A DNA stretch of 64,000 bases. Source: an uncultured Gemmatimonadaceae bacterium. GTDB lineage: Bacteria > Gemmatimonadota > Gemmatimonadetes > Gemmatimonadales > Gemmatimonadaceae. A program made the position numbers and the translations under genes. The stretch is taken from positions 64,001-128,000 of the forward strand of contig CAWFQK010000004.1 in assembly GCA_963817955.1 (NCBI GenBank). The letters are read 5' to 3'. The notes under the pieces were generated by a model. That model saw only the letters and a list, made by a program, of their open reading frames with translations, had not been told where the DNA came from and searched no databases. Positions 6,440-52,921 of this stretch are shown one piece after another (position 1 is the stretch's first letter; each line of letters opens with the position of its first letter).

Positions 6440-7192
6440 GTGTCCGCGGCACCGGCACCGAGACTGACCGCTGGACTGTTCGCGTCGGTGCTCCTGCACG
6501 GAGCGGTGATCGCGGCGTTCCTCACACTACGTCCCGCCGCGCCGCTGCCTTCGCCCCCGATGTACCGCGTGCAACTCATCGCGGCACCGGCGGGCGAGCG
6601 CGCCATTGGCGTCGTTCGAGATCAGCCGTCCGTGGCGTCGCCCGCGGCGCCGTTACCCGCAGTGCCGTCGCCCGCGGCACCGTCGCCCCCAGTACCGTCG
6701 CCGCCGGTCGCCAAAATTGCCCCGAAGACTAAGCCGGCAGCAATGAAGAAGAACAAGGCTGCGCCGGCCCCGAAGACCGTCACGCCGATGCCGAAAGCAA
6801 CGAGCGGCGACAAGGCGAAAGCCAACGCACCTACCGCTGGTGGCGGTCCCACGGGCGGTAAGGGCGCCGACGTCGCGAACATCGACACGCCCGGCATCGA
6901 GTTCCCGTATCCGGGTTACATCAACAACATCACCCGGCAGATCCTGCTGCAGTTTCGCGCGCATCCGACGCGCTTCGTCCTGACGGCGGAGGTGCGCTTC
7001 ATGATTCGGCGGGACGGCTCTGTCGACGGCATCAACATGGTGACGTCATCGGGCAAATTTACATTCGATCAACAAGCGCTCGGCGCGGTGGAATCCGTGG
7101 CCAACGCACACCTCTTCGGACCGCTTCCTCCTGGCTTCCGTGAGGACATCTTGCCGGTGACCTTTCGCTTCACTCCTTCGCTTCTCCGATGA
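6440..7192 (+). CDS. TolA/TonB-family protein
   Basis: N-terminal TM with SVLLH, Pro/Ala/Lys-rich linker, TonB-C-like domain (F.IRRDG, SSG..FD..AL.AV); between tolR and tolB. Confidence 0.8.
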   Translation: MSAAPAPRLTAGLFASVLLHGAVIAAFLTLRPAAPLPSPPMYRVQLIAAPAGERAIGVVRDQPSVASPAAPLPAVPSPAAPSPPVPSPPVAKIAPKTKPAAMKKNKAAPAPKTVTPMPKATSGDKAKANAPTAGGGPTGGKGADVANIDTPGIEFPYPGYINNITRQILLQFRAHPTRFVLTAEVRFMIRRDGSVDGINMVTSSGKFTFDQQALGAVESVANAHLFGPLPPGFREDILPVTFRFTPSLLR

Positions 7193-13101: not shown

Positions 13102-13177
13102 GTGACACGGGATTGGGACACGGGACACGGGTGTGGGACACTCACAACGCACAACTCGCAACTGGAAACTCCAAACT
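13102..13177. repeat. Degenerate heptamer tandem repeats
   Basis: GGGACAC-type units at 13102/13115/13122/13135, then CACAACG, CACAACT, CGCAACT, GGAAACT, CCAAACT at exact 7-nt spacing 13143-13177. Confidence 0.65.
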
Positions 13178-13357
13178 CGCCGACCGGTGGGCCGACCGCG
13201 ACGGAGCCGCCAGCGACATCCAGCCTGCGGTGCGCCTGGAAGGTGGTCCGGGAGCAGCCGGTCAACGACCCGGAGCCCCATCCCCGCCGCGCAGCCCGAC
13301 GAAAGTGGCCTATCACGCGCTCCTTGAATAACGGGCGTGGCGGGTCGAACTTTCGCC

Positions 13358-26234: not shown

Positions 26235-28058
26235 ATGGCCAGTTCCGCGCGCATCGACGAGCTACGAAAAAAATTCGACGAGAACCCGCGGCGGTACTTC
26301 GCTCCCCTCGCCAACGAGTACCGCAAGGCCGGCGATCTCGAGCAGGCGATCTTCATTTGTCAGGAGTACCTGCCCCAGCAGCCGGGCCACATGAGCGGCC
26401 ACATCGTCTATGGTCAGGCCCTCTATGAAATGGGTCGCCACGACGAGGCCCGCGCGGTCTTCGAGACTGCCTTATCGCTCGATCCAGAGAATCTGATCGC
26501 TCTCCGGCACCTCGGTGACATTGCCCGCGAGTCTGGCGACACAGACAGCGCCCGCGTCTGGTATCAGCGTGTGCTCGAAGCTGATCCGCGCAATGAGGAG
26601 ATCGCTCAGATCATGATCTCGCTGCTCGCCTCTCCGGTCGAGCGTGCCTCGGCGGGCGATGCGGGTTTGCATGTCGAAAAATCCGAGGAATCCGAGATAC
26701 CCGCCGAGCCGAGCGTTTCGACGTCGAGCGGGCTGGCCGGCCCAGACTTCGAAGCCGTATCAGACTTCGATGCTCTATCAAATCTCGAAGCCGTATCAGA
26801 CTCCGAAGTCTTTCTAGACTCAGAAGCCGTACCGGTTTCGGACGGTGACGTCACCGAAGAGGACGCGTTGCCGATCGTGGCCTCAGCATCGGCTGCCCCT
26901 GAGGTCGATGACGGTCTCCTCGACTTCGGCGATTTCAGCATCGGCGGCCTCGGTGTTCCAGTGTCGGCCGGCGAGTCGGATGACGTGTTGGAACAGCCGT
27001 CAGCCGCCGACGCCGGCATCGACACGGCCAGCGAAGAAGAGCCGTTCGAGGCCGATCCGTTTGCAATCGCAGGCGCATCCTTACTGGGCGAGCCCGAGTC
27101 TCCGGACATGACGGAACCGCTGGCCAACACGGAGCCGCCTGTCGTCGAGTTCGCGACGGACCTTACCCTCGGATTAGCGGACGACTCGGCAACGGTCTCC
27201 AATGAGCCACCGCAGGACGCGCAGATCGACGGACTGGAAACCTTCGAGTCCGGATTCCCCACAGAGGAAGAGACCGTACCCGCATCGGCATTCGTTACGG
27301 AGACGATGGCTCAGCTCTACCTGGAGCAGGGGCATCTCGAGTCTGCAGTGGACATCTACCGTCAGCTCGTGGAGCAGCGTCCGGAGGATGCGCATCTCAG
27401 CGAGCGCCTGCGCACTCTCACAGAACAAGCGCACGGCGCGCCTGCGTCTGCTGCTGCCGGAGACAGCGTTCCCGAGGAGCCGGCGAGCGCCGGCGGACCG
27501 ACCATTCGCGAGTTCCTGAGTGAATTGGTCGCGCGCCGGCCCCTCAGCGTCGAGACACCCCTGCAAGTCGCGGACAGTGAGATGAGCGAAGGCTCGGTTG
27601 CGGCGGACACCCTGCTCACCGACATGCAGGTGGCGGTCGAGCTGGATACGGAACGCACGGCCGAGCCAGGATCCAGTCGTCCATCACCGTCGCCCTCGAG
27701 CGACACGGTGAGCGGGTCGATCGATGTCTTGTTCTCAGGCGCCGAGCGGTCAGTTTCAGATACACCGGCCGCAAGCACATTCGCCGAGGCGTTCGGGCCG
27801 AAGGACGCTGAAACGGAACCGTTGCAGGGGGTGCCGGCGCATCGGGCATCGAGCGAGTTGTCGCTCGACCATGTCTTCAAGGGCAACAAGCCGCCCAAGT
27901 CGGACGAGGATCCTGATGGCTTCTCGTTCGACCAGTTCTTCTCCGAAGATGCGACGGATTCCTCGAGGCCCGGTTCGGAAGGCGGCACGCAGGCGCAGGA
28001 ACCGACGGATGACATCGCGCAGTTCCACGCGTGGCTCAACGGACTCAAGAAAACGTGA
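26235..28058 (+). CDS. TPR protein with long acidic low-complexity linkers
   Basis: N-terminal TPRs (FAPLANEYRK), internal TETMAQLYLEQGH, C-terminal FHAWLNGLKK. Confidence 0.8.
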   Translation: MASSARIDELRKKFDENPRRYFAPLANEYRKAGDLEQAIFICQEYLPQQPGHMSGHIVYGQALYEMGRHDEARAVFETALSLDPENLIALRHLGDIARESGDTDSARVWYQRVLEADPRNEEIAQIMISLLASPVERASAGDAGLHVEKSEESEIPAEPSVSTSSGLAGPDFEAVSDFDALSNLEAVSDSEVFLDSEAVPVSDGDVTEEDALPIVASASAAPEVDDGLLDFGDFSIGGLGVPVSAGESDDVLEQPSAADAGIDTASEEEPFEADPFAIAGASLLGEPESPDMTEPLANTEPPVVEFATDLTLGLADDSATVSNEPPQDAQIDGLETFESGFPTEEETVPASAFVTETMAQLYLEQGHLESAVDIYRQLVEQRPEDAHLSERLRTLTEQAHGAPASAAAGDSVPEEPASAGGPTIREFLSELVARRPLSVETPLQVADSEMSEGSVAADTLLTDMQVAVELDTERTAEPGSSRPSPSPSSDTVSGSIDVLFSGAERSVSDTPAASTFAEAFGPKDAETEPLQGVPAHRASSELSLDHVFKGNKPPKSDEDPDGFSFDQFFSEDATDSSRPGSEGGTQAQEPTDDIAQFHAWLNGLKKT

Positions 28059-49480: not shown

Positions 49481-50794
49481 ATAAGCCGCGATTATATCGA
49501 CGTCACGCCGCCGGTCGAGCGGGCGCTCCTCGTGGGTGCGCCGCTCAAGCGACCCGGCGCCCGTCGCGTGACCGACGACCATCTCCGCGAGCTGGCCGAG
49601 CTGGCTGATACGGCCGGCGCGGTGGTGATCGGCGAGATGATTCAGCAGATCGACCGCCCGCATCCCGGGACCTATCTCGGTAAGGGAAAGATCGACGAGC
49701 TTCGCCAACGTGTCGTCGACACCGGCGCGACGCTTGTCATTTTCGATGACGAGCTGTCGCCGAGTCAGGGCAAGAACATCGAGGACGCGATCGGCACGCG
49801 TGTCATGGATCGAGCCGAACTCATTCTCGACATCTTCGCGACGCGCGCGCGTACGAGTGAGGCCAAGGTGCAGGTTGAGCTCGCGCAACTCGAGTACATG
49901 CTGCCTCGCCTCACCCGCATGTGGACGCACCTCGAGAAGTTCCGCGGCGGTATCGGCGTGCGCGGACCAGGGGAAACCCAGCTCGAGACGGACCGGCGGC
50001 TGATCGGCCACCGGATCAAGGTGCTGCGCCAGCGACTCCAGGATGTGCAACAAAGCCGGGCCGTCCAGCGCCAGTCGCGCCAATTGGAGTTCAGGGCGTC
50101 GCTCGTCGGCTACACGAACACCGGCAAGTCGTCGATCCTGCGCGCACTGTCGGGGCAGGAGGTGTTCGTCGAAGATCGACTCTTCGCGACGCTCGATCCG
50201 TTGACGCGAGACGTCGATCTGGGGGACCGGGCACACGTGCTGATCACCGATACGGTGGGCTTCATCCGAAAACTGCCCCACCACCTGGTCGCGTCCTTTC
50301 GCGCGACGCTCGAGGAGACACGGGACGCGGATCTCCTCCTCCACGTGATCGACGCCAGCGCCCCGACCTGGGAAGAGCAGCGGCTCGTCGTCGAACAGGT
50401 GCTCGACGATCTCGGGGTGAACGACCGTCCGAAACTGCTTGTGTTCAACAAGATCGACCTCCTTGGCCACGACGCCTTGCTCGCGTTGCAGGAACGCATC
50501 TGCGCGCTCGTGCCCTCGGCGGTGTTCGTGTCGGCAACGGCCGAAGGGGGCCTCGAACCTCTCCGGCGCGCGCTCGCGGCGGCCATGCGGCAGCGCCGTC
50601 CCCTCACGCGCATCAGCATGTCGCCGTCAGACGGAAGGCTGCTCGCTGAGATCCATCGCGACGGCGAAGTGATCGAGCAGCACATGGAAGGCGACTGCCT
50701 CGTCGTCGAGGCCCGGGTCGATGACGCACTCGCCGGCCGCCTGAGGCGTGCCGGCGCCGAAGTAACCAGCAACGGAAAAGCCCCGCGCGAATGA
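49481..50794 (+). CDS. hflX: GTPase HflX (probable ATA start)
   Basis: ELAELADTAG, ILDIFA.RA, QVELAQLEY, RGPGETQLETDRR, GYTNTGKS, DTVGFI, NKID. Confidence 0.95.
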   Translation: MSRDYIDVTPPVERALLVGAPLKRPGARRVTDDHLRELAELADTAGAVVIGEMIQQIDRPHPGTYLGKGKIDELRQRVVDTGATLVIFDDELSPSQGKNIEDAIGTRVMDRAELILDIFATRARTSEAKVQVELAQLEYMLPRLTRMWTHLEKFRGGIGVRGPGETQLETDRRLIGHRIKVLRQRLQDVQQSRAVQRQSRQLEFRASLVGYTNTGKSSILRALSGQEVFVEDRLFATLDPLTRDVDLGDRAHVLITDTVGFIRKLPHHLVASFRATLEETRDADLLLHVIDASAPTWEEQRLVVEQVLDDLGVNDRPKLLVFNKIDLLGHDALLALQERICALVPSAVFVSATAEGGLEPLRRALAAAMRQRRPLTRISMSPSDGRLLAEIHRDGEVIEQHMEGDCLVVEARVDDALAGRLRRAGAEVTSNGKAPRE

Positions 50795-50880
50795 CCTTCG
50801 CGTCGGACATCTTGGCCCTTGCGCTGACCCCCTGTTTTCGGAATTAATATATAGGACTACGCTCGTCGCACGACGAGCGG

Positions 50881-52020
50881 GTGCCGAGAAGCAATCGATC
50901 GCTACCCACAGGGGATGCGAGCGTGGCGAGAAGGGATCGGTCGGCGTGCAGAGGGGATGTCCGCGTGTTCAGGTGGGATCCCCGCCTGCTCAAGGGAATC
51001 CCTCGCGGTCGAGACCGAATTGACGCGTGTGCAGCTGGAATCCCTCGCGGTCGAGACCGAATGAGCGCCGATCGAGCAGGGACTCCGGCGCATCCAGCTC
51101 GCACCAGCCGCTGTTCAGGGCGGAGTCATTCCGGTCAAGAGGGAACACCCCGGTGTCGAGCCCGAATGCCGCTCGCGCTACACCGGACCGTCTCGCGCCA
51201 ACATGCCTCTCCCGCGCATCCACGCCCATCTCATGCGCTTCCACCGACAATCCTCGCCCCGTTCGCTGAGACACTGTGACGTCCACCTGAGATTGTGTCT
51301 CGGTCAGGTCGGAGTCTTTCCGGTTGAGATGGAACCCACGCGCGTCGAGGGGTGACTCGTCCGTGGTGAGATGGCACGGCGCCGGTGCAAGCACGAACCC
51401 CTCGCGTGCAAGCACGAACGCCTCGCGGTCAAGCACGAACCCCTCGCAATCAACATCGGACTCGCGGCCGTGCAGGAGGATTAGCGATTCATCTAGCTCG
51501 TATGCCGGCATGCTCACCACCAACTGCACGCCGTGCCGGAGGGATCGACCGGCGTCACGCGGGGAGTCGTCGCCGTCAACATCAGACTCTCGGGCGTCAA
51601 CGTCAGACTCTCGGCCGTTGAGACCTCTCTCGCGCGATGTCACGAGGGACTCATCCGTGTCGACGTGGAATAGATCCGTGTCAACGTGGAATGGGTCCGC
51701 GTCCACAGGCAATGGCTCGGCGTGCACGACCCAGTCGCTCGCGTTCAGCTGGGATGGCTGACGTAACAGCAGGAATGGCTGACGCAGCCGATCGAACCGT
51801 CTCGTGTGCAGGCGCCACGCCCGATCGTGAAGCTCGCAGGCAATCGTCTCGAGGACGGACTCCCCGCGTGACAGGCAAGACCACCGCTTCTCACGCAGAC
51901 ACCCACCGGTCGGAACGAGGCTCCGACTCTTCCGAACACGAGTCTGTCGGTTCCGACGACCATTCCGTCACTCCCGACGACCATTCCGTCGCGTCCGACG
52001 GCAATCGCGACACGTCTCAC
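50881..52020. repeat. Degenerate 21-bp tandem array (~50 units)
   Basis: Exact 26-bp repeat at 50995/51037 (42 apart); AAGCACGAAC at 51389/51410/51431; ATGGCTGACG at 51755/51776; CCGACGACCATTCCGTC at 51953/51974; heptad periodicity in the ORF-track translations. Confidence 0.8.
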
Positions 52021-52106
52021 GCCGGTTGCTCGCTTTCTACTCCGGCGCGTCCGGCGCTCGCCGTGGTGCAGTTCTTTTTCAGCGCCCTCATGGCCACCTG
52101 AAGGCC

Positions 52107-52613
52107 ATACGAAATACCGTGAAGGCAGTACCTTGGCGACGCTCTGCCGCAGCGCAGATTTTGTCGCGGCACGCCCCGTCTCGTTCGCCGCACCGAACGG
52201 CTCGACGATGCTACGGAAGGCATCGCAGCCGCCGCGAAGATTCGGCTCAAGGCAGTCCCGGACTTGAGCTCGCTGACGACGCCGCGGGATAATGTGTCGA
52301 TGGAGCGGTTGCTCGCTTCGGCGGCCGCGATTGCCGAAGCGCCCGGTGGCACGAGGCTGTGCTGATCGACGGCGGTCTGCCGACCAATCTTATCGCGCAG
52401 CTCGATTCGCAACTCCTGCCGCTCATCGGCACCGACCAGGCTTTGCTCGCCGCTTGGCAGGCCGCCAAGCGCATCCAGCGCAAACCCGCCATCAAGATCG
52501 GGTCTACGACTGCGACGACGCCGTCGCTGGTCATCATCCCACCGTTCCCCACATCACCCGTTACCACACCGCCGGTAACTCCTCCGCCGGCGAGTGAAGT
52601 GCTGGCCGCGTAG
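52107..52613 (+). pseudogene. Decayed gene for an uncharacterised helical protein with a Pro/Thr tail
   Basis: Protein-like blocks in shifting frames: EGSTLATLCR; IAAAAKIRLKAVPDLSSLTTPRDNVSMERLLASAAAIAEA; HEAVLIDGGLPTNLIAQL...DQALLAAWQAAKRIQRKP. Confidence 0.6.
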
Positions 52614-52646
52614 TCCGTAACACCACGAGGTCACAACCCGCAGCAG

Positions 52647-52680
52647 ACGCGAACGGCCGCCCGAGGGCGGCCGTTCGCGT
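52647..52680. terminator. Hairpin between the accessory ORF and convergent tRNAs
   Basis: Perfect inverted repeat ACGCGAACGGCCGCCC-ga-GGGCGGCCGTTCGCGT. Confidence 0.8.
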
Positions 52681-52693
52681 TCCTCCCCAACGA

Positions 52694-52767
52694 TGGTCAC
52701 GCACGGACTCGAACCGTGGACCTCTGCTGTGTGAAAGCAGCGCTCTAACCAGCTGAGCTACGCGACC
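52694..52767 (-). tRNA. tRNA-Val(CAC), CCA not encoded
   Basis: GGTCGCG TAGCTCAGCTGGTTAGAGC G CTGCT-TTCACAC-AGCAG AGGTC CACGG TTCGAGT CCGTG CGTGACC A. Confidence 0.96.
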
Positions 52768-52847: not shown

Positions 52848-52921
52848 TGGTCCCGGTGGGACTTGAACCCACGACCTGGCGATTATGAGTCGCTCGCTCT
52901 AACCAACTGAGCTACGGGACC
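52848..52921 (-). tRNA. tRNA with CAT anticodon, probably tRNA-Ile2 (lysidine); CCA not encoded
   Basis: GGTCCCG TAGCTCAGTTGGTTAGAGC ..GCGA-CTCATAA-TCGC.. GGTTCAAGTCC; paired 1:72 and no GGG/CCC anticodon stem, so not initiator; anticodon arm like E. coli ileX. Confidence 0.9.

Follow-up and report, generated by a model that had tools for sequence, protein, structure and literature searches.

A 21-nt periodic, non-coding array between hflX and tRNA-Val heads a broken copy of a multiplied gene-array unit in an uncultured Gemmatimonadaceae bacterium

Between hflX and a tRNA-Val gene of an uncultured Gemmatimonadaceae bacterium (GenBank assembly GCA_963817955.1), the DNA repeats itself loosely every 21 nt for more than a kilobase. 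We asked what this array is, whether it belongs with the reading frame behind it, and how it came to lie there. The locus sits in a 64,000-nt stretch of contig CAWFQK010000004.1 (positions 64,001 to 128,000, forward strand), called the window below; coordinates given without a handle are positions in it. Arrays of this general kind are known. Subirana and Messeguer (PMC8161180) describe bacterial tandem repeats of constant size, 20-21 nt, that are non-coding and variable in sequence and that form species-specific families with a short conserved motif per unit. The repeat length equals two turns of DNA, and the authors propose that a protein polymerising on the DNA would demand a constant size. 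In the part of that paper covered here, neither a partner gene nor a unit of promoter, array, gene and hairpin is named, and empty sites do not figure. As it stands there, the constant-length 20-21-nt repeat is a published puzzle without an identified partner, and the unit described below offers a concrete candidate protein family.

The array is real and periodic. Lag autocorrelation over 50881-52020 reached 0.49 at 21 nt, 0.46 at 42, 0.41 at 63 and 0.39 at 84, against 0.20-0.30 at lags up to 90 that are not multiples and 0.270 +/- 0.013 (maximum 0.319) in 500 shuffles. A cyclic 21-state profile traced 51 units across 50881-51952, with a single 1-nt slip at 50992/3, and some three more diverged units extend the array to about 52010, for a total of about 54. 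An initial annotation made from the letters alone had proposed a 21-nt period of roughly 50 units with a register slip near 50995, and was right on both counts. The exact duplications it had picked out (a 26-mer at 50995/51037, a triplet at 51389/51410/51431, pairs at 51755/51776 and 51953/51974) are all present, and nearby units are more alike, as it had said: identity is 0.48 between neighbours and falls to about 0.38-0.42 at distances of four units or more. Its proposed core, GTCSAS...GGA, proved weak, GT(C/T)SAS occurring at 10 of 46 unit junctions. The invariant letters are instead two adenines 7 nt apart, found in 90% and 92% of the 1,042 units that a profile scan recovered from 21 arrays of this subfamily in the same genome. 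One of these adenines has the lowest substitution rate of the 21 unit positions, 0.009 against a mean of about 0.06. Between copies the array changes length mostly by 21, 42, 84, 1 and 20/40/41/43 nt, and in sister copies 20-nt and 21-nt units alternate, so that the register slips every 41 nt. Two copies that lack the gene, C4:1120367 and C4:765601, carry arrays of 67-71 units with this alternation and hence a 41-nt super-period.

The array is also non-coding, because dN/dS lies near 1 in all six frames (0.75-1.05; nine non-overlapping copy pairs, 532 substitutions). Substitutions showed no codon-position bias (0.067/0.052/0.054), and on the dN/dS values coding readings were rejected in every frame. 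The same measure in three control pairs of intact ORFs from the unit gave 0.34, 0.15 and 0.31; these ORFs are under purifying selection. A structured-RNA reading of the array was likewise tried and rejected: it folds no better than its shuffles on either strand (z 0.31 and 0.40), and an Rfam scan returned nothing at threshold except tRNAs, and no CRISPR family.

The array in the window forms the leader part of a 1.9-kb unit, here in a broken copy, that consists of a promoter-like head, the array, an ORF and a hairpin. The features between and including the flanking host genes are as follows.

49532-50794, plus strand: hflX, the left-flank host gene, an ORF named from the initial sequence reading and conserved in 18 same-genus genomes
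50776-50788, plus strand: left arm of the host's original post-hflX hairpin, its right arm, seen in several relatives, gone
50790-50855, plus strand: left end of the unit and promoter-like head, present in 18 of 21 copies
50860-50879, plus strand: small pre-array hairpin, poorly conserved among copies
50881-52010, plus strand: the array itself, non-coding with a 21-nt period, some 54 units and a 1-nt slip at 50992/3; two invariant adenines
52034-52108, plus strand: spacer, read from sequence; a hairpin is predicted in it, and a purine-rich word resembling a ribosome-binding site precedes the start position
52109-52613, plus strand: helical-protein pseudogene, 85% identical to the intact copy C2:716949, stop at 52611-52613
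52647-52680, no strand assigned: perfect 16-bp closing hairpin, in 12 of 21 copies, a putative terminator without U-tract
52694-52767, minus strand: tRNA-Val(CAC), the right-flank host gene, from the Rfam scan
52848-52921: tRNA-Met, next after tRNA-Val, from the Rfam scan

The head holds TTGCGC (50819-50824) and an AT box, TAATAT (50845-50850), 20 nt apart, and the arrangement TTGCGC-N20-TA is repeated in diverged paralogous units. We read the head as a putative promoter; the 20-nt spacing is atypical and not that of a standard sigma-70 promoter, and a promoter scan did not call the head. In the window it is about 81 nt shorter than in three sister copies, through a 5' deletion. The small hairpin reported after the AT box folds cleanly in this copy but is weak or different in others. 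The spacer hairpin was predicted in 7/7 units folded, a count made without a shuffle control. The hairpin at the end of the unit had been annotated as a terminator; its 16 perfect pairs are followed by no U-tract, and a terminator scan made no call. Similarity between copies stops a few bases past it, at about 52688.

The region 52107-52613 had been taken for one protein ORF and is instead a pseudogene. It has ACG at 52109 where intact paralogues have ATG, a deletion of 127 nt near 52218, a 1-nt deletion near 52343 that shifts the frame, and a deletion of 126 nt near 52399; its tail is Pro/Thr-rich. Assembly artefact is an unlikely source of the large deletions because they are common to copies that are 10-20% diverged. 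In one sequencing run, possibly from the assembly's own sample, a 151-nt record with 21 differing letters runs gap-free across the 127-nt junction, and an identical record spans the 1-nt deletion. The single 1-nt frameshifts in two other copies, C8:39481 and C2:998541, could be sequence errors.

How many such units does the genome hold, and in what state? BLAST of 50801-52700 against the assembly returned near-full-length relatives at about 80% identity, and the profile scan placed 21 arrays of this subfamily in front of an ORF start position. Only four of these copies have an intact ORF (252-276 aa); two carry one frameshift, 11 are internally deleted and four break off within the first 50 nt of the ORF or earlier. 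The 127-nt deletion is common to five copies and the 126-nt deletion to three, at different loci, which shows that deleted versions of the unit were themselves copied once broken. At the 3' side the copies end together, to within a few bases, just past the hairpin. The 5' ends are ragged and merge into other repeats, of which the genome has many (three short motifs give 157-269 matches each), and the flanks of copies are unrelated. There are also 3'-truncated copies, and copies whose flanks are shared well beyond the head.

We saw by eye no terminal inverted repeats and no target-site duplications, and no end-to-end inverted repeat among eight inverted pairs; since the copies are 10-20% diverged, short target duplications could have decayed. 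The sole product of intact copies is the helical protein, which has no family match, and a mover acting in trans is conceivable. The genome, which is 94% complete, yielded no Y1 transposase, and its only RVT_1 match (L186:3412-4665, that is C4:731911-733164) is not adjacent to any copy of the unit; its neighbours are an ORF for an IS-like transposase and a helicase gene in fragments. Among other genomes of the genus, 0/30 had this DNA subfamily. The unit has multiplied about 21-fold in one lineage without a transposase of its own, mostly as broken copies. Beside several deletion junctions, in C4:1204286 and C2:123796, 10-25 nt are unusually diverged with the net offset kept, as if by error-prone joining.

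The window's copy is an insertion at a site that is empty in relatives. Both flanks are present in 18 same-genus genomes; the distance from hflX to tRNA-Val is 5-258 nt in 17 of them and 1,219 nt in the other, compared with 1,899 nt here. The 1,219-nt gap holds an unrelated gene and no 21-nt period; it is a different 1.2-kb insertion (L023, G012:C24) with a 380-aa ORF that has a signal-peptide-like start. Insertion of the whole unit is recent. The stop codon of hflX (50792-50794) falls inside the first bases of the insert, overlapping a word common to the 5' flank of four other copies, and the right arm of the host hairpin that lies across the hflX stop is gone; both arms are kept in the relatives' loci L013, L014, L021 and L026-L028. 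At a second copy, C4:1406753 (locus C4:1405900-1408400), relatives have about 5-9 kb between the same flanking genes and this genome has 2.4 kb holding the unit. The missing middle, which in relatives contains other genes, has no orthologue-level match in this genome for 3/3 relatives tested. No empty site could be compared at a third copy, C2:716949, so target-DNA loss is seen at two sites. The unit apparently replaces host DNA where it lands; the deletion may precede or follow the insertion.

The intact protein belongs to a wide family without a name. A profile of seven paralogues drew in 4,255 clusters (50% identity) at E<=0.001, and the family matched in 49/201 genomes of the phylum and 19/31 of the genus; metagenomes searched with the intact protein yielded a single, distant locus. 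Distant homologues carry database names that indicate Gemmatimonadaceae. The nearest Atlas clusters are unnamed and come mostly from Acidobacteriota, Gemmatimonadota and Bacteroidota. Searches of Pfam, NCBIfam, PHROG, PADLOC and PDB sequences gave no match at cut-off. An Atlas lead to DUF6261 (PF19775; score 0.87, the family being on 32% of that cluster) is absent among the best 25 of 46 families listed for 129 members. The structure model (pLDDT 97) predicts a helical bundle of elongated shape that repeats itself once internally, at an offset of about 104 residues. No Foldseek match in PDB or BFVD reached E<=0.001, and a VIA-align search returned middling, generic helical bundles (best Z 9.3, rmsd 3.8, 176 aligned); these fold searches showed no resemblance to a known DNA-binding fold. 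The protein is basic: the median net charge of the core is +10 across 129 members, and control segments (n = 818) have a median of -1, with 4% of them at +10 or above. No conserved set of catalytic-looking residues appears in the family.

If array and gene form one unit, they should be found together elsewhere. Among 29 family loci of other genomes, a 21-nt array lies upstream in 20 of the 28 with enough upstream DNA and downstream in 0 of the 25 with enough downstream DNA, and random windows have one in 9/300; the genomes are kin, and the count is not a formal test. The remaining 8/28 upstream loci fall below the array threshold. In this genome, four paralogues at about 30% identity have their own arrays, unrelated in sequence, behind the same type of head. 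The array thus travels with the gene family: its consensus is wholly different between subfamilies, and the period stays 21 across subfamilies and genera. Of the two options in the initial annotation, a non-coding array paired with the downstream protein is the one supported: the dN/dS near 1, the 20/41-nt register changes in sister copies and the family co-occurrence all speak for it. The annotation had missed that the downstream gene is broken in the window, that the whole unit is a recent insertion with 21 copies in this genome, and that broken copies were copied in turn.

The coupling has exceptions. Several intact family genes show little upstream periodicity, C2:11439 and C1:441587 have no upstream array of their own, and many arrays persist without a gene. 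In the subfamily of C5:177932 (minus strand), the gene and its end hairpin come first and the 21-nt array follows them, and the orphans C1:191501, C2:412851 and C4:1152401 of that subfamily retain at most gene tail, hairpin and array. Tandem arrangements occur too: at C1:440973-442472 two family paralogues follow one array, the second being more diverged, and at G300:C25 two family genes 1.6 kb apart each have their own array.

Our data are consistent with a model, to which we give a probability of about 0.45, in which the intact protein polymerises on its own two-turn array and controls the promoter, and copies spread by recombinational patching and not by a transposase. The helical protein would coat its array with one repeat per two DNA turns, and the polymer would control the unit's own promoter-like head; a polymer of this kind would hold the period fixed while the sequence of each subfamily drifts. 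Copies, dead or alive, would be copied into breaks with loss of target DNA, a route that would need no intact gene in cis. DNA is a better candidate target than RNA, because in the C5:177932 subfamily the array stands beyond the end hairpin and because the array folds no better than shuffles. What we infer here is binding of the protein to the array, a double-stranded DNA target, promoter function of the head, and spread by copying into breaks with loss of the target.

A simpler account, unlikely in our view although the strongest of the alternatives, makes both partners neutral passengers: an old array built by slippage would sit beside a useful gene whose role has nothing to do with it, and ectopic recombination would copy the two passively. 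Physical linkage alone accounts for the co-occurrence of gene and array, and related genomes are not independent. The genome is rich in dispersed repeats into which copies of the unit often merge, substitutions in the array look neutral overall, and arrays without genes and genes without arrays both exist. However, drift should not preserve a period of 21 across subfamilies and genera whose sequences have turned over, nor would it be expected to leave one adenine at 0.009 against the mean of about 0.06. The array on the other side of the gene in the C5:177932 subfamily also argues against a passive neighbour.

The lengths of the ORF deletions suggested a different picture. Net deletions in this subfamily measure 127, 126, 315, 273, 272, 127 and 249 nt. 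With the 272- and 273-nt deletions merged (they share a junction) and indels in the low-complexity tail excluded, 5/6 fall within 1 nt of a multiple of 21, a tolerance set post hoc; 249 is the miss, and p is 0.0004-0.001 for a chance of 0.146-0.19 per deletion. There is no 21-nt periodicity inside the ORF itself. These lengths would fit a self-packaging element, in which the whole unit, as RNA or single-stranded DNA, would be wrapped by the protein into a filament of 21-nt repeat that the array nucleates. Copying on the filament would skip whole turns, as in defective-interfering genomes, giving a bacterial 'rule of 21'. The 3' ends that are uniform just past the hairpin, the ragged 5' ends, the proliferation of dead copies and the basic protein all agree with this. 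The analogy, for this reading only, is the paramyxovirus 'rule of six', where in the account consulted (PMC8708338) a polymer of basic protein sets a fixed nucleotide phase. In contrast to the paramyxovirus nucleocapsid as described there, our protein has no structural match to viral proteins and the unit holds no polymerase.

The pattern did not extend beyond the subfamily. For a held-out set we took deletions from the 5' flank of the window's copy, from a second subfamily and from further genomes, several of them measured against distant or decayed parents. Of these, 1/7 fit (167 nt); 404, 81, 196, 224, 249 and 136 were off, which is chance level (p 0.67-0.77). Both sets combined give 6/13 (p 0.007-0.024). 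Some junctions have microhomology or homeology, and 315 nt is the offset of the protein's internal repeat; either may explain part of the discovery set. We therefore keep the 21n+/-1 pattern as a lead only. The unit also holds no copying enzyme, the one RVT_1 match is not beside a copy, and the 3'-truncated copies and the flanks shared far past the head also count against it. We thus regard self-packaging as distinctly unlikely, and doubt to the same degree its wider form, a selfish element with no enzyme and only a coat, in which a nucleoprotein track governs copying and defective copies parasitise the few intact ones.

An improbable further alternative is that the array is a long transcribed 5' leader, bound as RNA for translational self-repression or for transcript stability. 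Its position, mostly between the promoter-like head and the hairpin that adjoins the start codon, would suit a leader, as would a basic protein. The folding at shuffle level, the lack of an Rfam family at threshold other than tRNAs, the array past the end hairpin in one subfamily and a period matching two turns of DNA all point away from it.

The initial annotation had offered a fossil heptad-repeat gene as its second option and had stated that no frame spans the array. The latter was nearly wrong, because a minus-strand frame is open for 325 codons (50993-51967), and that frame holds 15 stop codons across copies where 42-68 are expected, a count from related copies that are not independent; the frame shows no selection at the protein level (dN/dS 1.05). 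A fossil or cryptic heptad-repeat protein, whether antisense or as an N-terminal extension like the heptad-like ones of a few database proteins, is thus very improbable and unsupported, since repeated 20-nt units break the frame in sister copies, the database extensions are mutually unrelated, and a fixed base in codon position 1 or 3 does not look like protein coding.

The preferred reading, in which the protein would polymerise on its own array, can be set against known systems. Plasmid iteron/Rep and centromere/binding-protein cassettes place phased repeats of about two turns beside the gene of the presumed binder, often autoregulated. Unlike these, our unit is chromosomal and has about 54 degenerate units where they have a few near-identical ones. 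Its protein has no match to a Rep, ParB or ribbon-helix-helix family at cut-off; an unlisted family is possible. No record in plasmid and phage collections matched the unit. Insertion sequences, MITEs and REP/BIME mosaics leave many dispersed, mostly defective intergenic copies that often abut other repeats. Like insertion sequences and MITEs, the unit occupies a site that is empty in relatives (17/18 same-genus genomes) and most of its copies are defective; unlike them, it has no inverted repeats or target duplication that we saw, its 5' ends are ragged, and target DNA is apparently lost. No transposase was seen in the unit, and one acting in trans is conceivable. It also differs from retroelements (group II intron, retron, DGR) in having no reverse transcriptase linked to its copies, and from CRISPR arrays in that its degenerate 21-mers stand head to tail without repeat-spacer alternation.

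The closest likeness is to the repeats of PMC8161180, as far as that paper was covered: a period of 20-21 nt, non-coding, with subfamily-specific sequence and, here, two invariant adenines. In contrast to the repeats described there, this array is physically coupled to a specific protein family, and the unit spreads. A literature search, with subscription papers mostly outside its coverage, found no description of this gene-array unit; the supplements of PMC8161180 or its authors' earlier cross-bacterial survey could list such arrays. This gene-plus-array unit without an enzyme is apparently undescribed; 1.9 kb long, it has expanded about 21-fold in a single lineage, and most of the copies are broken. 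The one in the window is dead, and it is valuable because it documents the spread and the ways in which copies fail. Since one genome holds several cognate gene-array pairs that differ in sequence, swaps between them can probe specificity and spacing. The window has other tandem repeats as well, of heptamer, 18-nt and 15-nt types, at 13104-13180, 26743-26831 and 6632-6702; the heptamer type is abundant across the genome.
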